Source of the DNA: a bacterium | GTDB lineage: Bacteria > Babelota > Babeliae > Babelales > GCA-2401785 | Reading direction: 5' to 3' | Length of the DNA stretch: 64,000 nt | NCBI GenBank assembly: GCA_023249975.1 | Contig: JAHFBP010000001.1 | Coordinates: forward strand, 69,870 to 133,869 | Shown: positions 2,323-48,640 of the stretch, piece by piece | Numbering within the stretch: position 1 is the first letter of the stretch | How the letters are laid out: every line of letters begins with the position of its first letter | The notes under the pieces: model-generated | Database searches by the model: none | What the model was told of the DNA's origin: nothing | What the model saw: only the letters and a program-made list of their open reading frames with translations | Program-made: the position numbers and the translations under genes

Positions 2323-2528
2323 TATACACTCCTTTATTTCTTCAATTTAAAACAGCCACATTCCAAGCATTACTGATCAGCTCTGCCGGACCAGAGGAAC
2401 CGATACCTGTTTTCCACAAAAGAATATGGAAACTCACGTATATTCCATCATTTTTGATTATAAGTTAGCCAGGGAAAAAATCAAGAAACCTTATAGTGCT
2501 CGACTCAGAAATTATAGGCGCAAAAGAC

Positions 2529-2798
2529 TCAGGCATATGCCGGGCCACCCTTGCCTGCAACGAGCAAAACAACGATCTTGTCGGTTCTGTTGCGTGAATC
2601 ACCACCACAACCACCCATCATTCTCAATGGTCTAATTAAATCAAGGTTGGCAGTCGAGATAAATAATTCTTCTTCAGTTCCGCCCCATACTTCATCTTCA
2701 AACAAATTGTTACCAATGTAAATTCCATTGTAATCAGATGAATATTCACTTTCATAACAAAGAAGAATGCCTTGCTTTGTTGATATATCGTACTTCAA
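2529..2798 (-). CDS. Hypothetical small protein (89 aa) in the groES-rho intergenic region; may be spurious
   Basis: It is the only ORF in a ~740-bp gap. The translation looks protein-like but has a Gly-rich tail. No recognisable domain. Confidence 0.25.
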   Translation of the reverse strand: MKYDISTKQGILLCYESEYSSDYNGIYIGNNLFEDEVWGGTEEELFISTANLDLIRPLRMMGGCGGDSRNRTDKIVVLLVAGKGGPAYA

Positions 2799-2963
2799 GA
2801 GGGTATCCAGGGTTAATCCGAAGGCAGAAAAGCCCTACAGGTGGGCCACTCTCAAGAGTATAGCAAGCGGACAGCAACCCACCTAAACAAAGATGTAAAC
2901 CGGCATTTTTTGCAAAAAATCTCTGTTTTACTTACCAAAAGCCTTTATCCTCGGCCTTAAATA

Positions 2964-2997
2964 GCAAAAAAGGCCCCAGAATTTTGGAGCCTTTTTT
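2964..2997 (-). terminator. Probable rho-independent terminator for rho on the minus strand
   Basis: Minus-strand RNA reads GGCUCC-AAAAUUCU-GGGGCC (6-bp stem with one G·U pair) followed by UUUUUU. Located ~70 bp downstream of the rho stop. Confidence 0.5.
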
Positions 2998-3067
2998 GAA
3001 TTCGAAATAACCCTTCGATACTATTTTTCTTGCGAAAAATACTCAGGGCATGCAGAGCGTTAAAAAC

Positions 3068-4924
3068 TTATGACTTGGACGGAGCTCCGTTTGCTCTCTT
3101 GGCATTCATAAGATCCCAGAATTCCTGGTTCGTTTTGGTTTTGCGCATTTTATCAATCATGAATTCCATAGCATCGGAATTGTTCATGGTTGACAAGAAC
3201 TTCTGCAATACCCACATGCGTTTGACTTCTTCATCAGGGAGAAGTAAATCTTCGCGACGTGTTCCAGAATCGAGGATATCAAATGATGGATAGATACGAC
3301 GATTGGAGAGTTTGCGCGTCAAATGGATTTCCATATTGCCCGTACCTTTAAACTCTTCAAAAATCACTTCATCCATACGTGATCCTGTTTCAACAAGTGC
3401 GGTTGCGATAATGGTCAATGAACCACCTTCTTCAACATTACGTGCTGCACCAAAAAATCGTTTTGGACGATGCAATGCGTTGGCATCAATACCACCAGTC
3501 AAAACTTTACCCGATGACGGAGCAAGTGTGTTGTACGCACGCGCAAGACGAGTTAATGAATCTAAGAAGATCACTACATCTTGACCACATTCGACCAAGC
3601 GCTTTGCTTTTTCGAGCACAATTTCCGCTACTTGAACGTGACGTGTTGCATATTCGTCAAAGGTTGAACTGACCACTTCACAATTGACAGAACGTTGCAT
3701 GTCGGTCACTTCTTCTGGACGCTCATCAATCAACAGAACAATAACTTTTGATTCTGGATGATTTTTGATAATTGCGTTGATCAAATCCTTTTGCAGAACC
3801 GTTTTACCCGTTCGAGGTGGAGCTACGATCAGCCCACGCTGACCTTTACCAATAGGAGCAAGAGTCTGCAAAATACGTGTTGAAATGATTGAAGGATCAG
3901 TTTCCAAATTAAACGGCTTATCCGGGAAAAGTGGTGTTAAGTTTTCAAATACCGTGCGATTAATACTCGCTGATGGTGATTGATAGTTAATGCTATCAAC
4001 GCGCTGGAGGGCAAAATATTTTTCACCTTCTTTTGGATGACGCAAGGTTCCTTTAACAACGTCACCGGTACGTAAACCGAATCGACGCATATGAACAGGG
4101 GACACATAAATGTCATCTGGGCCCGGAACATAGTTAAATTTAGGTGAACGCAAAAATCCAAAGCCATCTGGTAAGCGCTCAAGAATTCCGTCTCCAAAAA
4201 TCTCCACACGTTTTTCAGATTGAGCCTCAAGGATGCGGAAAATAATTTCTTGTTTTTTCAGTGCAGAGACATTCTGCAAACCAATTTTTTGTGAATACAG
4301 AATCAACGCATTAATGCCCATATCCTTGAGCTCTTGCATGTTAATTGATTCTTTAACTTCACCTGGTACAACAGACCCTTCAATTTCTTCTTCAGGCTCA
4401 CAAACAAGTGGGCGTGGGCCACGGCTGTTGCCGTTGCCATTTCCATTTCCGGAATTTCCTGAGTAGCCATTATTGCCAGAATAGCCGCCGTTACTGGAGC
4501 CACCATTGTTGCCAGAGTAACCACCGTTACCTGAGTAGCCACCATTACTGGAAGAATTGCTGTTGTTTGAGTGGCTATTATTGCTACCACCAGAATAATT
4601 ATTGTTATTGTCAGTATTATTATCGTCGCTACCACCAGGAATATTGCCACTACTTGAGTTGCCGATAGTATTGCCATCAACTGGTCGCTCTTGTGAGTCA
4701 GGTCGTGGAGAAGGCGAACGATATGGGCGTGGTGCTCCGGTTCGCGGTGCGCCGGTCCTCGGCTTGCGCACAGGAGCTTTGGTGCCATCTTCAGAATTTT
4801 TACGCACGGCACCTTCTTTGGATGCATCATCACGTTGCTGACGAGGAGTATACGGACGTGGTCGACGAGGAGTGTCGTCCTTCATAACCATACGTGGAAC
4901 AAAATCTTTAGAATAGTCTGACAT
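3068..4924 (-). CDS. rho: Transcription termination factor Rho with a ~195-aa N-terminal extension (basic RP-rich segment plus N/G/S/Y low-complexity repeats)
   Basis: C-terminal ~420 aa form a canonical Rho: N-terminal helix bundle ([19 protein letters not shown]), OB-fold/RNA-binding motif (FGFLR), Walker A (GKTVLQ) and ATPase core. The N-terminus reads MSDYSKDF...[15 protein letters not shown]... followed by GGYSGNNG-type repeats. Confidence 0.93.
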
Positions 4925-5225
4925 AGAAAAAACCTTTTAAGAACGAACAGCAACTCTCTTTATTTCAAGTGCTGATAATATTTCACACAAGAGTTGTGTA
5001 AAAAAACATTAATACAAAAACTTTGGGTAGATGATTTCAATAGTTAAATCGTGATTTTTATAGTGAGTCGATAAAAAAAATGAGCATCGTGCTCAGAAAA
5101 AACCCCCTCTTTTTTCTCACAAATTTTTGTAAGTTGCCGACCAGATTTAATCCAGTCGGCAAACTTTTTTCATTGTCCACAAGCGTGAATCAATGCAGAA
5201 CATCAAAGAAAGAGTCCGTGATGCC

Positions 5226-6104
5226 TTATAACTTTGTTCCAGCAACTGCGAGCATAACTGGGCTTGCAATATAAATGGAAGAATACGTACCGACAACAAT
5301 AGCAATCATCATGGTCAACGAAAAAGCTTCAAGCGCCTCTCCGCCAAACAGATAGAGTACCGTTACTGATAAGAATGTTGCAAAACTGGTCAAAAGCGTT
5401 CTGCGTAATGTCTTGTTCAAACTATAATTAACAAGATCATACGCGGCTTGAGTGCTCGCAGGAGGAGTCTTTGCGGCACATTCACGAATTTTACTAAAAA
5501 TAATAATAGTATCATTCAGCGAATAACCAAGTAACGCAATAATCGCCGCAAGGACATGTTGAGAAAATGCCATTTTGGTAATGAGTAAAAAACTCAAAAT
5601 TGCCAACAAGTCATGCCCCAAAGAAACAATGGCTCCAAGTCCATATGCAAAGCGAAAGCGTGCTGCAATATAAATTAAAAGAGCAATCAAGGCCAAAATG
5701 ATCGATTTGGCAGCATTCCAACAAACTTCTTTACCGGCCTCTGGTCCAACGTGATCAACACTGGAAACAACAAAAGTGTGATCAGAGAGCTTATCGCTCA
5801 CCTTTCGCTTGAATCGCTCGCCAATATTGGCACCTTCTTCATCAGATTTAATACGAACCAAAAATTCGTCTGACGTAGAACCAAGAGTTTGAATAGTTGC
5901 ATGACTCCAACCAGAATGTTCAACTGCTGAACGAACCTTGGCGATATCAACAACTTTTTCAAACTTGAGCCGGAGCTCAGAACCACCTTCAAAGTCTATG
6001 TGATAGGCAAATCCATTATTCTTAACGTAACCAAAAATTCCAACACCCAAAACAGCTATTGAAAGAACCAAAAAAAAGTAACGGTATTTCAAAAAATCTA
6101 CCAT
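5226..6104 (-). CDS. secF: Protein-export membrane protein SecF
   Basis: 292 aa. N-terminal TM segment followed by FEGGSELRLKFEK periplasmic domain and C-terminal multi-TM region typical of SecF. No adjacent secD. Confidence 0.85.
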   Translation of the reverse strand: MVDFLKYRYFFLVLSIAVLGVGIFGYVKNNGFAYHIDFEGGSELRLKFEKVVDIAKVRSAVEHSGWSHATIQTLGSTSDEFLVRIKSDEEGANIGERFKRKVSDKLSDHTFVVSSVDHVGPEAGKEVCWNAAKSIILALIALLIYIAARFRFAYGLGAIVSLGHDLLAILSFLLITKMAFSQHVLAAIIALLGYSLNDTIIIFSKIRECAAKTPPASTQAAYDLVNYSLNKTLRRTLLTSFATFLSVTVLYLFGGEALEAFSLTMMIAIVVGTYSSIYIASPVMLAVAGTKL

Positions 6105-12604: not shown

Positions 12605-15600
12605 TTACGATGCATTCTTAAGCAAAGTAGCAAGGTGAGCCAAATCATCGGCGCTCATGCCACTGGTATCGCCTGAAGCTTCGGCAGCATTAGGATCAAC
12701 GGCAACAGCATTAGGATCAGCAACTGGGGCAGCTGCAACTGAAGTCGGCTCTTTCCATCCTTCTTTGAGTGCCTGTTGATATGGTGGAGCCACAAAAATA
12801 TTACGGTAATTAATAGGGGTATTCCAACTACTCAGACCCACATATTGCATACGACCAGGCGGATAAGGATCAGTCCATTCAAGAACCTTGTTAGTTCCCA
12901 AATCACCCTTACCCAAAGCAATCGTGCCATTATCCAAACTAATCCAATACTTTTGATATTCAATGGGCGTAATCATCGCATCAGGATGCTCTTCAGAAGT
13001 AAACTGCGCAACCGGGAAATCAAGACTTTGGACCCTTATGGCTGTTTTAGTATTGTCCCAACCACCAATAACTATCTCATAAATTTCATTTGATGAATTT
13101 CTTGTTTTGAATGGCGTTTGCCCAAAGCAAATGAAAATATCATTAATTGCTTTAGCTTCAAAAACGATTGACCCTTTTCCTGTTTCTTTAAGCTTATCGG
13201 TCAACCACACATATTCAGCATAATAAGGTCGCAATTCAACGCCAGCTCGTGCATTGTCTGCCAGCAAGGCGCGCGCCAATCCATTAATCCAGCTATACCA
13301 AACATCCTTGAGTTTTGCTTCATCAGGTTTATTCATATCAATCAAATATGCATTGTTTTGTGCTGAAATCAGCAAGTTTAAAAGGTCATTGTAAGGAGCA
13401 CGGGCTCCAGGCTGAGTTGGATCTGGATATAATTCTTTTTGAGCTTCATTTAAGCTCGCCAATGCATCGAATAGACTTTTTTTGACATATGGATTTTGAA
13501 CAACATATGGATGATTAATAAGATAAACAATCTGTTGATATAAGCTTACCAAACGCTCAAACTTGTCAGGAGTTGACGGTTTCCACTTGCTACCAAGCTC
13601 AATATTTGCATCAACTTTTGCTTTATTTTCAACAGCTTCTGGAGGGATGCTCGCTTCACCCAAATGCGCACCCATATATTTATCGGTATACACATAAGCC
13701 TGTGCATCACGGAAATTTTGCAATTTAGCCGACTGTGCAGCTGCACCAGCTCCCAGAGCCGCTCCTGCAGCACTAAACCCAAGACTTCCTATTGTTGCTA
13801 TCAAACCACCAATCTGAGTCTGTCCGCTCACTGACTGCCCAGAAGCATCCAAGGATTCTGATGTTGCTTTCATAATGTCTGCTGACTTTTGAAGTTCTAT
13901 TTTGCTTGGATTTTCAGGCTCAGTAACCCAATCCAACTGAGGAAACCCATCTGATTTAACTGTGATCATAAAATAATATTTTGCACGCTGTTGTGGCGTT
14001 GCCCCAGGATAATACGTTTTATTATTAACAATATCTTTAAATTTAACGGATGAACCCTCTTGTTCAATGTGATATTCATACGGCAAAATGATATACACTG
14101 CGCCTTTATACGCAAATTGAGCAAGTTCACGTTTATATGACTCAGAAACTGTGGCAATTTCAGGGCGAACAGGTGAGGCAACTTTAATATTCTTAAAGGA
14201 TGCTGACGTTCCACCAGTACCGCCAAACCCTATATATTTTAAAGTACTGATTGGCGAAATATCTTGAAGAAGAGTAAATGCACCTTCTCCCAACTTTCCC
14301 TCACCAATAATCAATTCACCAAAATAAAAGCTTGCCCAATAACTGCGCACACCACTGGGGTCAAGTGCAGCTTTTGGATATGATTTTGCCTTTAAAAATG
14401 CCATGTCCTTGTATCCGCCGCTGACATCTGAAGACATACGCTGAATTCTGAGGCCTTCATTTTCGCCATCCCCAAAAATAATAAGGTAACGATCACTCTT
14501 GCCATCTTTTTCAGCTGCTATAGCAAAAACCGCCTGCTTATTTCCTTTAACATCAAATGAAACTGCTCCGCGCCCTGGAACACGAAACGGCTTGTCATAC
14601 CAGGTCAAATTATCCAAAGATCCTGATGTATTCACTTCGGTCGTTCCTGCATCAAAAACTCGTTTTGCCGCCGTCATAACGACGGGCTTGCGCATTTGAA
14701 CTTCTGCATAAGTAACCGGTGTTTTATCGGTAGAAAAACCAACACGCCTGACCTGAGCTGGCGGGTTAGGATCACGCCACGACATAATGGTTCCTACGCC
14801 TGGCTGACTTCCCGCTCCAACTAAAATAAGTCCGTCATTAATACTCACCCAATAAGGAATAAAAACTCCTGGCGTAGTTGAAGCGGCTGGAGTCTCGTCA
14901 CGTGTAATTTCAAAAACAACTTCATCAACAGGAAGACCTTCCTCAAATCGTCTTTTAATAATTTGAGACTTGGTATTGTCATATGCACCTAGTCGAACTT
15001 TCCACACAAAGTCTATACCAACATCAAAACCAAAAACGACCTGAATGTCGCCCCTATCTTCCGCCTTTGCTCGAAATAAAATGGTAACCTTGCCAGGAGT
15101 ATCAAGAGATGTCCCCAACCAGGCAGCACCCTTGCTCAACAATGAATTAACGGTCAACATAAAACTTGAATCGAAGTTATCAATCTGATCTTTGGCAAAA
15201 CCCGACAATCGTGGTTTTTTTGCAGCACTCAACGTATCTGCAAAGTCTTGCGTTGCCTTGGGCGCAATTCCTCCACCCATCCCGAGTTTTACAATTTCGA
15301 TATTAACAAGCTCATTTGCCCCATCCTCCGCAGGTGAACCATAAGGCGCTCCTGTCCAGGCAACATCATCTTCGGGCATTGCCGATTCTATGGCATCAAA
15401 GACCCACCATAATCGACTTTTTTGATCGGATGTGAGAGCTTGCGCCACAGGTTCGGCAGGCGCAGTGGTCGCTGCTGTTTTTTGAGCAGCTTCTGCCTGA
15501 GCCGTGGCCTTTGCCTGTATAGCTTCAATCTGTACCGTTGTTGCATCTTTTTGCACAACTGCCTGAGCGCGAACAAGAGCCTCAGCCCCCATAACCTCAC

Positions 15601-16405
15601 TACTTGCTGAATATAATTCACACTTTGCGTCTACACTCACAAAAGTAACATTGCGCCCCCAAATCCACTGTCCACCACCTTCAACCAGTACTTGAAAGTT
15701 GTCTCCTCCATCACCAAGGCCATCTTTTCCATTTAAAGCTACGGCCAAGTTGGATGGTATTGAAGACGCGCGCCTTTGTTTGTCCATGTGGAGATTGCCA
15801 TTGTGTGCAGGATCTGCGCATTGCAAACGAATAATATCGCCATGCATAACAGGAGTCCCTGGGATGCAGTTCCATGGATCATCTTTGCGATGCGGGCCTT
15901 TGACTACCCAATACTCAGGAAGCTCTGCTGCAGCTGCTACCCCAGAAGAAGACTGAAGATTATATTCATAATGATCCCTTCTTACCTTTTCTTTGGTTGT
16001 TCTCATTTCTTGAATACCACTAGAATTATGAATGGATGTGAAATAGTGCTTATAGGTAACATCCTCTTCGGCTTCCTTAGATACAAGCTTTTTAGTAACT
16101 TTCAAATCAACGGCAGAAACTGTGCCCGCTGGGGCACGCAAGCCTTTACTCGATCCAAGGTTACAAATCTTGAGATAGTCGCCATAATTTATCGGTTTTT
16201 TGCGACTCAACAAACCATTCTTAAGAACTGATAGTTGTTCATCTGCAGGAACATCTTTTGCTTCATAATTCAACACCTTTCCCACGTCCTTATTCCCTGC
16301 GATGTCTTTACCTTCTGGGGTGAGTGCGGAGCCTGAAAAAATATTCAAAAAAAGAATGTATCCCCACATTTTACTCTGGTTTTTATTAATCATCATTTTT
16401 GTCAT
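12605..16405 (-). CDS. Giant secreted protein (1266 aa) with three FAMeT-like (Methyltransf_FA-like) beta-sandwich repeats. Paralog of the 17312-21835 protein.
   Basis: N-terminal signal peptide. Three modules match the motif pattern ...IGGWDNTKTAIR...YWISLDNGTIALGKG...VLEWTDPYPP...YVGLSSW. Pro/Ala-rich C-terminal tail. Extensive collinear similarity to the 1507-aa neighbour. Confidence 0.85.
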   Translation of the reverse strand: MTKMMINKNQSKMWGYILFLNIFSGSALTPEGKDIAGNKDVGKVLNYEAKDVPADEQLSVLKNGLLSRKKPINYGDYLKICNLGSSKGLRAPAGTVSAVDLKVTKKLVSKEAEEDVTYKHYFTSIHNSSGIQEMRTTKEKVRRDHYEYNLQSSSGVAAAAELPEYWVVKGPHRKDDPWNCIPGTPVMHGDIIRLQCADPAHNGNLHMDKQRRASSIPSNLAVALNGKDGLGDGGDNFQVLVEGGGQWIWGRNVTFVSVDAKCELYSASSEVMGAEALVRAQAVVQKDATTVQIEAIQAKATAQAEAAQKTAATTAPAEPVAQALTSDQKSRLWWVFDAIESAMPEDDVAWTGAPYGSPAEDGANELVNIEIVKLGMGGGIAPKATQDFADTLSAAKKPRLSGFAKDQIDNFDSSFMLTVNSLLSKGAAWLGTSLDTPGKVTILFRAKAEDRGDIQVVFGFDVGIDFVWKVRLGAYDNTKSQIIKRRFEEGLPVDEVVFEITRDETPAASTTPGVFIPYWVSINDGLILVGAGSQPGVGTIMSWRDPNPPAQVRRVGFSTDKTPVTYAEVQMRKPVVMTAAKRVFDAGTTEVNTSGSLDNLTWYDKPFRVPGRGAVSFDVKGNKQAVFAIAAEKDGKSDRYLIIFGDGENEGLRIQRMSSDVSGGYKDMAFLKAKSYPKAALDPSGVRSYWASFYFGELIIGEGKLGEGAFTLLQDISPISTLKYIGFGGTGGTSASFKNIKVASPVRPEIATVSESYKRELAQFAYKGAVYIILPYEYHIEQEGSSVKFKDIVNNKTYYPGATPQQRAKYYFMITVKSDGFPQLDWVTEPENPSKIELQKSADIMKATSESLDASGQSVSGQTQIGGLIATIGSLGFSAAGAALGAGAAAQSAKLQNFRDAQAYVYTDKYMGAHLGEASIPPEAVENKAKVDANIELGSKWKPSTPDKFERLVSLYQQIVYLINHPYVVQNPYVKKSLFDALASLNEAQKELYPDPTQPGARAPYNDLLNLLISAQNNAYLIDMNKPDEAKLKDVWYSWINGLARALLADNARAGVELRPYYAEYVWLTDKLKETGKGSIVFEAKAINDIFICFGQTPFKTRNSSNEIYEIVIGGWDNTKTAIRVQSLDFPVAQFTSEEHPDAMITPIEYQKYWISLDNGTIALGKGDLGTNKVLEWTDPYPPGRMQYVGLSSWNTPINYRNIFVAPPYQQALKEGWKEPTSVAAAPVADPNAVAVDPNAAEASGDTSGMSADDLAHLATLLKNAS

Positions 16406-17311: not shown

Positions 17312-20300
17312 TCACTTTGGCATACCGTCTGATCCTTGCTCAGTAGCAGCAGCACCAGTAGCAGCTGGTGGTGGTGCTGGTGCTGTGGTTGGAGCTTGAG
17401 CTGACACACCTGTAGGAACAGCCGCTGGTGTTGGAGACTGTACGGTACTTGATTTCTTGATCACAGCAGGATCTTTTTTCTTGATAGCATCTGTCGCAAT
17501 TTTCTTAAGAGCCGCAGATACTGCTCCTGATTTGATTGCTTCCCGAGCTTTTGCAGTCGCTACTTTTTCTTGTTCATAAGCATCTTTAGACTCTTTTTTT
17601 GCATCTTTAAAAGCAGTCTTGAGAGCTGACTTCAGGCCGCCTTTTTCTTTAAAGAAAGCAATCTCCCCCTTAAGCATATGCTTATCTTGTTTTGCCAAAA
17701 AGGCTGCTCCTTGTGCATTCATAATACTTTGTCCTGCAGCACCCCCCTTAACCCGCTGTGCCGCACGAACAATTGGAGTAAAGCCAGTTTCAGCAACCTG
17801 TCGGGCAGCTTTTCGCTCAGCCAAAACTGGCGGTGGCCCAAAGGTATAGTCCCATCCCTCCAGTGTGAGTGGGTCATACGACAGTTCATCATATGCAAGC
17901 TCATCAAAATCTGTTTTTTTGGTGCTAAGAATATCTATTTTTTCAGCCTTTGAGTCCTGAGCAAGCTTGTCCGACTTGGTAATGTCCTCAAATGACAGTG
18001 CTAGAGTAGCTGCTTTTTCCTTTTCAAGAGCCGTCGCCGCGGTTTCTATCGCGCTCGGACCTTTTTGTTTTACTTCAACTAAATATGACAAATCAGTTTC
18101 ATTGGTAACGGGAGGTCCCACCTTGATGTTCGCAAATGTTACGGGAATTGCCCACGTACTAAAGCCTAAATATTGAGTTTTTATAGGGTACGGATCAACC
18201 CACTCCAAAACCTTACCCGTTCCCCATGGTCCATGACCAAGCTTGACCACCCCATCGTTAACGCTTACCCAAAATTTTTCAAGTACATTCGGTGTAAGCG
18301 CAGCATTAATATTATCATCGCTCGAAACCGTTGCGACGGAATGACCAAGGCTATAAGTTCTGATAAAGGTCTTTTGATTTGCCATTCCCCCAAATACGCA
18401 CTCGTAAAAGTCAACGTCCGTATTGCGCACATCCTGAGGTTGTGGAATAAGCCCCACAAAAATATCACTCAATCCACTCGCTTCAAAATACACAGATCCA
18501 CGTCCAGGTTGAGGCAGTTGAATATTTGAAAGCCAAATATATTCACCAAACAATGGCCGAACCGTCAAATCTTTACCTTTTTCAAATAACTCTTGGATCA
18601 ATTGCTGTATCCAGCCAGTCCAGAGGGTTTTTCGCTTGAGATCCATTTCATCACGACGATCCAATAGGTACGCATTTTCACGCGCTTCTACCAAAAGGGC
18701 CACTATCTGCTTTTTAAACATTTCTGGAGCAGCCCAGCGCGTTTCGGGTATTCCATACTGATCATATTTAAGGGGGGTATTTGCTGCATTTCGAGCTTCC
18801 ATATTTTTAACATGCTGGATACCTTGATCATAAACCTGCTTGATCATTCCAAAAAGTTTATTTTTCAGAGCCACTTTGTCTTGTGCTTGCCCAAGAATTA
18901 CCGGATGCGTAATAAGCATAATCGCTTGCTGAAGGATTGAAATATAATATTCGTAGTCACGCGCAATCCCCGGATTGAATTGTTCGAGCTTGTGCATTTT
19001 GTCATCAAACAAAGTCTTGTTGTCTTGAGCCTCCTGAGGAATAACGCCAGCCTTGCCACGCACAGATGTCTGTATTTTTTCCGTAAACACATAATTGTCA
19101 TGTGGTCGGTAACCAAAAGTATTGTTTGCCTCAAGAGTTGCAACTCCCACACTTCCCGCCACAAATGCCGAAGCTGATGCTATAGACGCTGCTGCATTAA
19201 CCGCAGAAAGTGCCATTCCAACAGGATCCCCATCCTGATACGGAACATTTCCTATTTCAGCAGCAGCACTGAGGGTCGTTCCAATAATGGTTCTTGCACC
19301 AAAAACAGCTAAGTTTTTCAAGAACACTTGTGCATTTTTCGGTTGACGCGACCAATCTCCAATCTCAGGAGTTCCATCTGGCTTGATAATCAAACGAAAG
19401 AAGTACGAGGCTGCTTGCTGTGGAGTTTTTCCTGGATACCATGTCTCTTGAGCTATTGCATCATAACACTCAATTTGCTGACCTTTTTGATCAAAATGAT
19501 ATGAAAAAGGAAATGCAACATTGATGACCCCTGCAAAATTATCACGCTGTTTAAATCCAGCAGCTACTTGCATACCCAATTGAACAGGCGACCCAATGCT
19601 CACATTTTGGATTTCACCCGTACTGGCATCGTTCAAGAAAAAACCTATTTTTTTCATTGAAGCCAACTGATCAATCCGGAGTATCGCCATTATCTTCTCA
19701 CCAGGCTCGCCATGCCCAATCACCATATAATCATAAAAAAGGCTCACCCAAAACTTTTTCCACTGATCTGGATCAAGCGCTTCCTGAATAAAAGCTACTG
19801 GAGTGGCTAGTACAGTTTCTTCGTACTCACCCTTTTCATTCATTTTCCATAGCGAAATGCCATCAAGATTATTGGCCCCGAAGGAAACTTGTATAACGGA
19901 TGCCTTATCCGCAGAAATCACGCCCTGAGAATCATCGCTTTTCAAGTTCAATACAACTTGCCCCTGACCTCGTGCCTCAAAGGTGACGCACCCTCGGCCA
20001 TCTTCACGCAAAGGCTTGTCGAGCCACAGCGGAGCATCCATTCCAACAGAAAGAACTCCCGGCTTTTCTATTGCTGTATAAACTTTGGATTGTTTTGTTG
20101 CTTTGATTGGGGGGCCAAGTTGAACTTCAACTATTTCAACATTTGTCTTAAAGTTTGAAAATCCAATGCGATCAACTTCGGCTGGTGGTGCAGGGTCTGC
20201 CCATGCAATAATAATATTTTCTCCAGGAATAGCCCCTGCGCCTGCAACAATCAATCCATTGTCAACACTTACCCAATAAGGCATATGCATGCCTGGCGGT

Positions 20301-21835
20301 ATTGCGGCAAGTGCGTTTTGTTCAACGGGAACCTCCGCTACAATGCAATCCCCCTTCATGATTACAGCCTTGGTATTATTAAACCCCCCAATAATTACTT
20401 TCCACACATATTGAGCAGGCGAAAGCTTGGTCGAACCAAATACTATTTGAAGATTTGCCGCATCTTCAACTTGTGCCCTAAACATAATAGAAGTACTCAT
20501 TGGTGTTGCCAAAGGAGTCTGAAGCCAGGCTGCCCCAAGATTCATAAGGCGACTCAGTTTTAAGCTTGTTTGATAATTGAAATTTTCAATGCGCTGTTGC
20601 GCAAAACCACTAATCACTGGTCGATCACGAACATATACTCGAAATGCTCCCGTTGGAGCATCAAATGGCAACATATTTTGAAGCGTATCTCGAAATGAAC
20701 CCTTGGCGCTCACCGTTAGTGCCGCAAGCCCTGCACTTGCTGCACCAAGCCCTCCAACCGCTAACGCAACCAGCCCGATGCTCTTTGCACTTGCAATCCC
20801 AGCTCCTCTATCGGCCGCACTTCGAGAAGCCTCTTTAGTGTCCCCATCGGCACTAATAGTTGCCATTTTTACACTTTGAGCATTGCGAGTAATCATTTTT
20901 TCTCTGAATTTTTGCTGAATTTTTTTTGCAGCTTCATCTTTTGTTACAGATGTAGCATTTTTTGCTTTTTCTATTGTTTCAGCCTTTTTTTCAGCAGCAA
21001 ACTTATCCTTCTTTTTTTCAGCAGCAGCCTTATCCTTGTTGTCCTGAACCTGCTTATCATAACCCTCCTTAATATGCTTATCTGCAAAACGCTGCAATAC
21101 ACTACCAGAAGTCTGTACCTTTACAGCTGCTTGCCGAGCCTCAAGCTCTACTTGAGTTCTTTTACTTTCATCAATTTGTTTCTTAATTTTTTTTGCTTCA
21201 TCTGAGTCTTGATCTTTATGCTCAAGCAACTTATTACTTAAATCGTTCTGTTTTTGCCTATGCTTATCAATACCTTTTTCATTAGCTCGATAATCAAGAG
21301 ACCGCGAAACTATTGCATCTTTTTCGGCAAATTGTTTTTTGAGCTTTTCATCATTTGGATTGTCTTCAAGTTGCTTTTTAAGCTCCCTGCGATTTTGTAT
21401 TTCTTTATCTAATTCATTGGGATTTTCTATCAATCCCTTACGCTCTTGTCCCACAATTTTTTTTACTGCCTTATTGGCTTGAGAGTTAAGGGCATACATA
21501 AGAGCCGCAGACCCCATCATCCCAAGGCTAGCCAAAAAGGTTTGTGCTTTTGCTGGCTCTGGATCTAATTGGATATTATCAGAATTTCCGCCATTGGCCC
21601 CAATTCGATAATCTTTGTTGGAAAAAGAAACTACTATAGGAAAATCAGAATTATTTTCTATGCGTTCGATAATCCCCCAGCCATGATTAGCTTTGGCAAA
21701 AAAATCCTGATTAACTTGATCACTTGCCTCTTGCATGTCCTGATCGGTAAGCGGAAAGCACTCATGAAGTGTATTGCCACAAAGAATAATTGTTAAAAAT
21801 ATGGCAATTTTTTTTCGATAGCCATTGTCATACAT
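17312..21835 (-). CDS. Giant secreted protein (1507 aa): K/E-rich coiled-coil N-region followed by three FAMeT-like repeats. Paralog of 12605-16405.
   Basis: Signal peptide MYDNGYRKKIAIFLTIILCGN. Long KEKKDK charged region. Modules with VWKVIIGGFNNTKAVI, PYWVSVDNGLIVAGAG and VLEWVDPYP. Pro/Ala-rich C-terminus. Confidence 0.85.
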   Translation of the reverse strand: MYDNGYRKKIAIFLTIILCGNTLHECFPLTDQDMQEASDQVNQDFFAKANHGWGIIERIENNSDFPIVVSFSNKDYRIGANGGNSDNIQLDPEPAKAQTFLASLGMMGSAALMYALNSQANKAVKKIVGQERKGLIENPNELDKEIQNRRELKKQLEDNPNDEKLKKQFAEKDAIVSRSLDYRANEKGIDKHRQKQNDLSNKLLEHKDQDSDEAKKIKKQIDESKRTQVELEARQAAVKVQTSGSVLQRFADKHIKEGYDKQVQDNKDKAAAEKKKDKFAAEKKAETIEKAKNATSVTKDEAAKKIQQKFREKMITRNAQSVKMATISADGDTKEASRSAADRGAGIASAKSIGLVALAVGGLGAASAGLAALTVSAKGSFRDTLQNMLPFDAPTGAFRVYVRDRPVISGFAQQRIENFNYQTSLKLSRLMNLGAAWLQTPLATPMSTSIMFRAQVEDAANLQIVFGSTKLSPAQYVWKVIIGGFNNTKAVIMKGDCIVAEVPVEQNALAAIPPGMHMPYWVSVDNGLIVAGAGAIPGENIIIAWADPAPPAEVDRIGFSNFKTNVEIVEVQLGPPIKATKQSKVYTAIEKPGVLSVGMDAPLWLDKPLREDGRGCVTFEARGQGQVVLNLKSDDSQGVISADKASVIQVSFGANNLDGISLWKMNEKGEYEETVLATPVAFIQEALDPDQWKKFWVSLFYDYMVIGHGEPGEKIMAILRIDQLASMKKIGFFLNDASTGEIQNVSIGSPVQLGMQVAAGFKQRDNFAGVINVAFPFSYHFDQKGQQIECYDAIAQETWYPGKTPQQAASYFFRLIIKPDGTPEIGDWSRQPKNAQVFLKNLAVFGARTIIGTTLSAAAEIGNVPYQDGDPVGMALSAVNAAASIASASAFVAGSVGVATLEANNTFGYRPHDNYVFTEKIQTSVRGKAGVIPQEAQDNKTLFDDKMHKLEQFNPGIARDYEYYISILQQAIMLITHPVILGQAQDKVALKNKLFGMIKQVYDQGIQHVKNMEARNAANTPLKYDQYGIPETRWAAPEMFKKQIVALLVEARENAYLLDRRDEMDLKRKTLWTGWIQQLIQELFEKGKDLTVRPLFGEYIWLSNIQLPQPGRGSVYFEASGLSDIFVGLIPQPQDVRNTDVDFYECVFGGMANQKTFIRTYSLGHSVATVSSDDNINAALTPNVLEKFWVSVNDGVVKLGHGPWGTGKVLEWVDPYPIKTQYLGFSTWAIPVTFANIKVGPPVTNETDLSYLVEVKQKGPSAIETAATALEKEKAATLALSFEDITKSDKLAQDSKAEKIDILSTKKTDFDELAYDELSYDPLTLEGWDYTFGPPPVLAERKAARQVAETGFTPIVRAAQRVKGGAAGQSIMNAQGAAFLAKQDKHMLKGEIAFFKEKGGLKSALKTAFKDAKKESKDAYEQEKVATAKAREAIKSGAVSAALKKIATDAIKKKDPAVIKKSSTVQSPTPAAVPTGVSAQAPTTAPAPPPAATGAAATEQGSDGMPK

Positions 21836-48190: not shown

Positions 48191-48640
48191 GGGGGTGTAC
48201 CGGCTTTCGACGTGTCGTTGTGTATCCTTGGTGCGTGTCGAGTTTGATTGTGGCTCGTAAAAAAACGATCAGCACAATAAGTGCAAACACAACAATGGCC
48301 CTTGTGGCCTGTGCTTCTGCAGCTCTTGTAGCTGCAGCTACAGCTTTTGTTGCTCCTGTTGCCGCTGCTTTTGCAGTTGCCTTCAGCAACGACACTGTAG
48401 TAGCTTAACCGCTGAACACCTTGTAAGCAGGTGTGTCTATTCACCCAGCTTACTCGTATTATAATAATAGAACTTGCCAGGTAGATTTCCTCTTTGGGTA
48501 ACCTGGTTTGTATCAACCAAAAGGGCAGAGTGGGTTTTGGGGCTTCTTGCATTCCTTCTCTGAACCTCAAGAAGACACACACGTAGTACCTCTGATATAA
48601 AGCGGGGCGGACATGGGTTCGACTCCCATCACCTCCACCA
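48191..48640 (+). ncRNA. ssrA: tmRNA (ssrA), about 450 nt, with a long Ala/Val-rich tag reading frame
   Basis: 5' end GGGGGTGTACCGGCTTTCGACG. 3' end is a T-arm (ATGGGTTCGACTCCCAT) + CACCTCC + A + CCA pairing with the 5' GGGGGTG, including a G3·U wobble (alanine identity). Candidate resume codon GCA at 48283 is preceded by AAAAAACGATCAGCACAATAAGU, as in E. coli. Tag frame runs to TAA at 48406-48408. Confidence 0.8.

Follow-up and report, generated by a model that had tools for sequence, protein, structure and literature searches.

Additional regions of the termination factor Rho have been classed by position, an initial region being Type 2a (Moreira et al. 2024, Nucleic Acids Research; PMC11347177). 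Initial regions were found in 18.7% of the surveyed Rho sequences, measure up to 352 amino acids (aa) and are predicted to be disordered, droplet-promoting and sometimes prion-like, and termination activity has been reported for the Type 2a Rho of Xanthomonas (PMC11347177). The intrinsically disordered region (IDR) of Bacteroides thetaiotaomicron Rho (BtRho), which combines a charged part with a 68-aa N/Q prion-like subdomain, drives RNA-dependent condensation via short charged motifs and intra-IDR contacts (PMC13269538), and the disordered domain of Mycobacterium tuberculosis Rho is required for recruitment to Rho utilization (rut) sites (PMC13650167). The Rho IDRs of Lachnospiraceae carry Tyr-containing tandem repeats, with YQSRGD present 14 times in C. 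symbiosum and RNYQD five times in Blautia obeum (Schumbera et al. 2023; PMC10284900). Here, we analyze the rho gene of a Dependentiae (TM6/Babeliales) bacterium, which lies within a 64,000-nucleotide (nt) stretch, hereafter the window (positions 69,870 to 133,869 of contig JAHFBP010000001.1, assembly GCA_023249975.1). The gene occupies positions 3068-4924 (-) of the window as a single uninterrupted open reading frame (ORF) with an ATG start, and its 618-aa product is probably a functional, canonical Rho helicase with a disordered initial region.

The Rho core and its N-terminal extension

Two NCBIfam Rho equivalog models, TIGR00767 and NF006886, matched residues 195 to 607 of the protein over the whole model length (model positions 2 to 414), with scores of 652.1 bits (cut-off 509.45) and 655 bits (cut-off 315). 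In an end-to-end alignment against solved structures, residue 195 pairs with residue 2 of Escherichia coli Rho, and the complete canonical Rho spans residues 194 to 607 of the 618-aa protein. AlphaFold2 (AF2) predicted this core to be folded, with predicted local distance difference test (pLDDT) values of 80 to 93. All three domains of the Rho architecture are present: the Rho_N helix bundle (residues 198 to 238, 4211-4333 (-); Pfam E = 2.5e-11, pLDDT 84-92), the Rho_RNA_bind OB fold (residues 245 to 317, 3974-4192 (-); Pfam E = 3.4e-30) and the RecA-type ATPase domain (residues 350 to 553, 3266-3877 (-); Pfam and alignment to E. coli Rho). Six residues separate Rho_N from the OB fold, and this junction aligns to that of E. 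coli Rho without gap or insertion. Also conserved relative to E. coli Rho are the GFGF sequence of RNP1, the Walker A sequence PPRTGKT, the sequence DERPEEV, and the Q-loop and R-loop stretches. Because the full-length Rho match starts only at about residue 195, residues 1 to 193/195 are an addition to a complete Rho. The original prediction had placed an extension of ~195 aa at 4340-4924 (-), upstream of a canonical Rho, and the pairing of residue 195 with E. coli residue 2 agrees with this, as do the peptides it had quoted; it had further described an Arg/Pro-rich basic segment followed by an N/G/S/Y segment, and the composition confirms both.

The extension, which precedes the Pfam Rho_N domain, is compositionally biased, is intrinsically disordered by prediction, and is made up of three blocks: basic, N/G/S/Y and acidic linker. 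In the AF2 model, built from an alignment of 53 sequences, residues 1 to 190 have pLDDT values of 35 to 50 and no secondary structure, and FoldIndex is negative over the whole extension. The basic segment (residues 1 to 85, 4670-4924 (-)) contains 16% Arg and 16% Pro, has 20 Lys and Arg residues against 12 Asp and Glu residues for a net charge of +8, and includes a doubled PRTGA unit as well as, at the DNA level, a small direct repeat with 24-nt spacing at 4832-4873. The low-complexity segment (residues 86 to 167, 4424-4669 (-)) is almost uncharged and contains 30% Asn, 28% Gly, 24% Ser and 6% Tyr, which together account for 88% of its residues; the [GSN]Y[GSN] motif occurs in it five times and the exact sequence GYSGN four times, at residues 129, 135, 147 and 153. 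The linker (residues 168 to 195, 4340-4423 (-)) abuts Rho_N and consists of a short basic RGPRP sequence and then an acidic/hydrophobic stretch, with a net charge of -5 over residues 169 to 194. The low-complexity stretch is more extreme than any other in the window's 41 long ORFs, which offer nothing close to it, and low complexity as a habit of the whole genome was rejected on this ground.

The extension is a coding part of the rho ORF and is not mis-annotated. Its frame contains no stop in 195 codons, the other five frames containing 1, 27, 5, 7 and 7, and mononucleotide shuffles of the 585 nt had a mean of 9.9 stops, with only 0.005% (5e-5) of them stop-free. The GC contents at the first, second and third codon positions (GC1, GC2 and GC3) are 0.546, 0.557 and 0.345. 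The first two are elevated because of the amino-acid composition, and GC3 is close to the values for the window's coding sequence (0.348) and the rho core (0.358). Upstream of the ATG at 4924 lies an AAGG Shine-Dalgarno (SD)-like motif (4933-4936 (-), position -12), and AAGG stands at -11 to -15 before 11 of the 35 putative genes of the window, rho, groEL and secF among them. Further upstream is a predicted sigma-70-like promoter, TTTACA-16-TATTAT (4975-5002 (-)), identified as a consensus match only, at 10 of 12 positions. An intrinsic-terminator-like hairpin with a T-run (5081-5095 (-)), at the end of the upstream secF unit, sets secF (5226-6104) apart from this predicted promoter. No SD-like motif precedes the internal M12 or M14, and the 45 nt ahead of M196 show none either.

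These data also bear on the possibility that the extension is an annotation artefact, with the true start at M196 and the upstream 585 nt forming a non-coding leader. Gene callers indeed began rho at the canonical N-terminus in two relatives (P0088 and P0117), and the low-complexity DNA leaves another frame (frame -1) nearly open, with one stop. However, the absence of stops from the extension frame, its coding-like GC3, and the promoter-like site and AAGG motif at the upstream ATG argue against a leader, as does the lack of a visible SD-like motif before M196. The position aligned to M196 is Val, not Met, in 108 of 119 homologues, and M196 is therefore not a conserved start; the two short gene calls have open polar frames upstream, and initiation at M196 would open a gap of 890 nt in what is a compact genome. 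We regard this alternative as scarcely credible. A frameshift or assembly artefact was likewise rejected on the basis of the stop-free frame, the coding GC3 and the start signals at 4924. Thus, the predicted joining of the extension to rho, in one stop-free ORF with its own promoter-like and SD-like signals, withstood both the frameshift and the internal-Met objections. Three ORFs of 79 to 176 aa, at 4303-4833 (-), 4408-4668 (+) and 4602-4841 (+), overlap the extension in other frames; these are by-products of stop-poor low-complexity DNA and not genes.

With 193 to 195 residues before the position of E. coli Met1 and Rho_N, nothing inserted between Rho_N and OB fold, and biased composition with predicted disorder, the window Rho classifies as a Type 2a atypical Rho. 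Because initial-region tails are already a documented class of Rho addition, it is a fresh example of that class and not a new sort of protein. The likeness to known Rho insertions that had been proposed for it therefore stands insofar as disordered Rho additions exist in other phyla, but not as to position, since this one is an initial region before Rho_N and does not interrupt the protein between helix bundle and OB fold. The Dependentiae are not mentioned by Moreira et al. (PMC11347177), and no paper in the literature searched joins Dependentiae with Rho. The Rho proteins of Xanthomonas oryzae and Xanthomonas campestris, with 214 additional aa, share with the window Rho an addition of more than 25 aa before the helix bundle that is biased in composition, is disordered by prediction and includes a stretch scoring as prion-like, all upstream of a canonical core. 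They belong to another phylum, however, and the Xanthomonadales are described as having arrays of APA and QN motifs in place of the N/G/S/Y and Arg/Pro segments found here, with no sequence homology between the two.

The arrangement of basic residues 1 to 85, polar residues 86 to 167 and acidic linker is of the modular BtRho type, although analogous to it and not homologous. BtRho (Krypotou et al. 2023, Science; EMBO J 2026, PMC13269538) similarly has a modular IDR beside its RNA-binding surface, with charged and prion-like subdomains, and the Bacteroides IDRs likewise keep their composition, but not their sequence or length, while retaining short charged motifs (PMC13269538). In contrast, the BtRho IDR is a 309-aa K/E-rich insertion, whereas the addition described here is N-terminal, 195 aa long and R/P-rich, with a Gly/Tyr-rich polar block and almost no Gln. 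Moreover, condensation, ppGpp (guanosine tetraphosphate) control and a role in fitness have been demonstrated for BtRho, whereas they are at most candidate properties of the window Rho. The Rho proteins of M. tuberculosis and Micrococcus luteus (PMC13650167, PMC8828861) have an Arg-rich IDR that raises RNA affinity and is required for productive rut-site recruitment, and these provide the model for the role that we propose for residues 1 to 85. Here too there are differences: the main disordered region of M. tuberculosis Rho is an insertion, although that protein also has an initial region of 35 to 36 aa; the mycobacterial and micrococcal species are GC-rich and have structured RNA, whereas the window derives from a 41% GC genome; and the window Rho has neither an EDDV nor a TDL motif.

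Repeat structure and marginal prion-likeness of the low-complexity block

The only real tandem repeat in the DNA of the low-complexity block consists of degenerate 18/36-nt units that encode (G)GYSGN(N) and cover ~115 nt (4455-4570 (-)). Within it, Tandem Repeats Finder reported 4467-4547 only, with periods of 36 nt (2.2 copies, 82% matches) and 18 nt (2.4 copies, 68% matches), and a repeat search recovered four 44-nt copies of 68 to 75% identity within 4455-4570. No exact repeat in the low-complexity DNA exceeds 12 nt, and outside these units that DNA is biased in composition but forms no tandem array. A degenerate tandem repeat had been predicted over ~4400-4660; its degenerate units are thus present in 4455-4570, the rest of the interval being only compositionally biased. 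Although the four GYSGN peptides are identical, their codons differ in 19 of 30 pairwise comparisons, in every case synonymously. To judge from these copies, an 18-nt (GGYSGN) unit was evidently duplicated locally to build up the block, after which the copies diverged synonymously, and this divergence makes the array a weak substrate for slippage now. The repeats of the Lachnospiraceae Rho proteins are similar in being short tandem peptides with a regularly placed Tyr that arose independently within a Rho IDR. They differ from the window unit in that GGYSGN is uncharged and present in about four copies, with Arg residing in a separate block and not in the repeat.

We next consider the prion-like N-terminus claimed in the original prediction. 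PAPA-like scores were calculated with a re-implementation of PAPA, including the FoldIndex gate, and are read against the published threshold of 0.05. By this measure the window Rho scored 0.079, with a peak at residue 137, and the controls behaved as expected, with Sup35N scoring 0.100 and the FUS low-complexity domain 0.101 and E. coli Rho scoring -0.159. The PAPA-like score thus exceeds its threshold, whereas in the census of Gln and Asn the best 80-residue window contains 25 such residues, below the classical threshold of 30. Overall, the prion-likeness of the extension is marginal, and prion behavior would be possible, if weakly supported.

A stronger form of this idea takes the N/G/S/Y block for a true prion domain of the kind present in Clostridium botulinum Rho (Cb-Rho), forming a heritable amyloid that switches Rho to low activity with genome-wide read-through. 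The Asn-rich disordered block with its above-threshold PAPA-like score would fit such a domain, and Cb-Rho provides a precedent (PMC4703818; also PMC11347177). Indeed, Cb-Rho also contains an Asn-rich polar disordered stretch that exceeds the PAPA-type threshold (Pallares et al. 2016, PMC4703818; Yuan and Hochschild 2017). In Cb-Rho, however, the domain is inserted between helix bundle and OB fold and has a predicted amyloid core, whereas the window block belongs to an extension before Rho_N, falls below 30 Gln and Asn in 80 residues and contains 28 to 30% Gly. High Gly content disfavors amyloid cores. The window tail matched no protein among 1.84 billion representatives, a search in which Cb-Rho was not compared directly. 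Moreira et al. further caution that a QN motif alone is no proof of a prion, and the Bacteroides fragilis Rho did not aggregate (PMC11347177). We therefore consider a true prion switch highly improbable.

Compositionally, the block most closely resembles the low-complexity domains of the eukaryotic FUS family, in which Gly, Ser, Gln or Asn, and Tyr likewise predominate, [G/S]Y[G/S] motifs recur, and the domain belongs to an RNA-binding protein with an Arg-rich region; the PAPA-like scores are also similar, at 0.08 compared to 0.10. Relative to FUS, the block has 5 to 6 motifs in 64 to 82 aa against 23 in 214 aa, and a composition of N33 G30 S25 Y8 against G25 S24 Q20 Y13. It is thus much shorter, has fewer Tyr motifs and uses Asn in place of Gln, and the likeness is one of composition only, without homology.

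The same features can be read more simply, with the block acting as a mere flexible, entropic spacer for "fly-cast" capture of RNA by the basic segment and mediating no self-association or condensation. With 82% Gly, Ser and Asn, the block has the makeup of a classical flexible linker, the basic segment occupies the far N-terminus, just five Tyr residues are present, and the Gln and Asn content is under the prion-census threshold, all of which would be expected of a spacer. On the other hand, the Tyr residues recur in a regular GYSGN unit whose peptide was kept despite synonymous divergence, and the PAPA-like score lies near those of the Sup35 and FUS controls and far from that of E. coli Rho. 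Rho is a hexamer, as established by its structure, and hexamer formation raises the valency of any weak contact sixfold. A spacer devoid of self-association accordingly appears improbable to us.

Rho tails and gene neighborhood in the Dependentiae

The proteins nearest to the window Rho have cores of 75 to 84% identity, and those with a named source come from Candidatus Dependentiae, Babeliales or candidate division TM6; the best match among GTDB representatives is a Babeliales metagenome-assembled genome. No identical or near-identical whole protein was present in the searched collections. Among the 120 best Rho homologues, 112 have tails of at least 25 aa before Rho_N; the median is 87 aa and the longest tail reaches 255 aa. 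Overall, the homologue tails span about 20 to 255 aa and are polar and unalignable, with three apparent exceptions. Two of these, P0088 and P0117, only seem to lack a tail, because their gene calls are truncated and the upstream frames are open to an ATG: the frames at L081:2330-2500 and L082:1130-1423 encode polar tails of 58 aa and ~97 aa, respectively, and the former is preceded by an SD sequence, AAAGGTGA. The recovery of these tails indicates that a tail is near-universal in the clade. The third, P0092, begins inside Rho_N on a 2.9-kb contig and looks N-terminally truncated. The order polA-rpmA-secF-rho is conserved with short spacers, and the tail occupies what would otherwise be intergenic space. 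An annotation pitfall follows from the truncated calls, in that some pipelines cut rho genes to the canonical N-terminus and thereby hide the tails.

Pooled, the tails are enriched in Gln (2.9-fold) and Asn (2.5-fold), as well as in Ser, His and Pro, and depleted in Leu, Ile, Phe, Trp and Cys, with Leu, Ile and Phe at 0.16 to 0.35 times their frequency in the core. Within this set the window tail has the highest Gly content, and in no other tail does [GSN]Y[GSN] occur more than twice. To compare charge, 68 long tails were anchored at the Rho_N junction. Positions -6 to -25 proved to be net acidic and more hydrophobic, and positions -26 to -80 net basic and rich in Gln and Asn. The 20 residues proximal to Rho_N are more acidic than the preceding 55 in 64 of the 68 tails (Wilcoxon p = 3e-12, a value inflated by the relatedness of the sequences). 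The window tail fits this pattern of a basic distal part and an acidic part next to Rho_N. A specific acidic-hydrophobic triad near Rho_N was dropped as a candidate feature, being found in 25 of 68 tails compared to 26 of 68 in a control segment. One subclade (P0005, P0010, P0013-P0015, P0058, P0107, P0043 and P0069) has tails of 72 to 255 aa that mostly start with MTRNK.R.GER and are rich in alternating Arg-Asp/Glu repeats (RDNRENSERREGGDRRESGERRE...), like the mixed-charge RD/RE domains of eukaryotes; a GLL.Y..LDEM.P...D..EPKR.LSMQELKDM stretch is conserved before its Rho_N domain.

The sequence of the tails changes quickly. In BLASTP the window tail aligned significantly with none of the 120 homologue tails (best E-value 0.26), and a word-indexed search of 5.8 billion proteins found no homologue of residues 1 to 101 at E <= 10. 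A full HMMER scan of 1.84 billion cluster representatives with residues 1 to 194 returned P0121 only, which was rejected as a spurious translation of a 17-copy repeat, and when residues 1 to 101 were compared with metagenome contigs, zero of 600 pattern matches was confirmed. Protein pairs with 95 to 97% core identity have tails that are only 40 to 64% identical, with tens of gapped columns. Even pairs with 99 to 100% identical cores (P0084/P0109 and P0076/P0118) differ by insertions and deletions in poly-Asn and poly-Gln runs of the tail, which shows that tail length varies at strain level in the Dependentiae Rho family. Within the otherwise variable tails of these pairs, MPHFSDLDDLIETP is invariant and is a candidate short linear motif.

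Such rapid change is what would be expected of a neutral appendage, that is, of slippage-born low-complexity sequence that drifts in small-population intracellular symbionts and has no specific function; it could be tolerated because the Rho N-terminus points out of the hexamer. Consistent with drift are the unalignable tails beside cores of 75 to 84% identity, the loss of tail identity and the dozens of gapped columns between close relatives, the homopolymer-run indels between nearly identical cores, the wide range of tail lengths, and the lack of any homologue of the window tail in the collections searched. Drift alone would not, however, readily account for the retention of tails in essentially all Dependentiae Rho proteins despite reduced genomes, for the charge pattern common to the tails, for short motifs such as MPHFSDLDDLIETP that are invariant inside them, or for repeat units that differ only synonymously. 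The strong depletion of hydrophobic residues also counts against it and implies that solubility and disorder, at the least, are under selection. We judge a purely neutral appendage to be rather unlikely.

The surroundings of rho differ from those in relatives on the downstream side, where tsaD follows rho in relatives and a 745-nt interval (2323-3067) and groES follow it in the window. This interval contains no long ORF, one small ORF (2529-2798 (-)), a terminator-like hairpin at ~2970-3000 and, by eye, a TTTACA...TATACT promoter-like site at ~2860-2900; no Rfam family was found in it at E <= 0.2, and no CIRCE element. Elsewhere in the window, the transfer-messenger RNA gene (48191-48640 (+)) is unusually long, at 450 nt, and according to ARAGORN encodes an atypical tag, AATAFVAPVAAAFAVAFSNDTVVA, that ends in VVA compared to the usual LAA. 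Two large ORFs, at 12605-16405 (-) (1266 aa) and 17312-21835 (-) (1507 aa), contain low-complexity stretches rich in Ala, Lys, Glu, Thr and Gln.

A proposed role for the extension

We favor, as the probable reading, a translated, disordered initial region of ~195 residues before the helix bundle that would tune termination through RNA capture and clustering. From the Rho proteins of Mycobacterium, Micrococcus and Bacteroides we infer the following mechanism. Six tails per hexamer would project outward beside the primary RNA-binding sites. The Arg-rich block would add non-specific RNA affinity, allowing the capture of poor or structured rut sites, and the Tyr-studded N/G/S block would mediate weak, multivalent self-association via Tyr-Arg and Tyr-Tyr contacts. 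These Tyr contacts could drive RNA-dependent clustering or condensation and so tune termination activity, and the acidic linker may act as a tuner by folding back onto the basic block or the RNA-binding cleft. By analogy, control by condensation or aggregation through the extension would be a plausible element of this mechanism.

Several points weigh against this proposal. The Dependentiae are AT-rich, and the rationale for an Arg-rich IDR, which concerns GC-rich structured RNA, is not obviously applicable to them. The low-complexity block is short (about 64 to 82 aa) and has five Tyr residues, far fewer than FUS-type domains with their 23 motifs. The sequence of the window tail is conserved in no relative, which neutral drift predicts equally well, and the significance of the charge pattern is overstated for the reason given above. 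Finally, translation may start at M1, M12 or M14, a difference of 11 to 13 residues. Of the alternatives, the neutral appendage is the main rival; the flexible spacer, the prion switch and the annotation artefact follow in order of falling likelihood.

Rho IDRs are under active study, from phase separation in Bacteroides to prion behavior in C. botulinum and the selection of rut sites in M. tuberculosis. To these the window adds an example from a phylum that is uncultured and intracellular, has reduced genomes and goes unmentioned in the published surveys. The combination of an Arg block with a Gly/Ser/Asn/Tyr block provides a compact test case, easy to synthesize, for Tyr-Arg "sticker" logic on a bacterial hexameric helicase. 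The more interesting by-product of the analysis is the Dependentiae tail itself, which is near-universal and hypervariable but has a common charge pattern. A bolder reading, which we hold to be doubtful, is that the phylum may have made a disordered N-terminal Rho tail obligatory. Such a tail would evolve fast under one grammar, which may comprise a basic polar distal part, an acidic-hydrophobic stretch by Rho_N and a PK(T/S)S(I/M)N junction, and it would serve as an autoinhibited module for RNA coacervation or capture that tunes termination in the protist host, in the window Rho with FUS-like Tyr/Arg stickers. IDR-bearing Rho has been expected to go with complex lifestyles (Schumbera et al. 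2023; PMC10284900), and the near-universal tails of the Dependentiae run counter to that expectation. If true, the obligatory tail would contradict the published link of IDR-bearing Rho to free-living, environmentally complex lifestyles.

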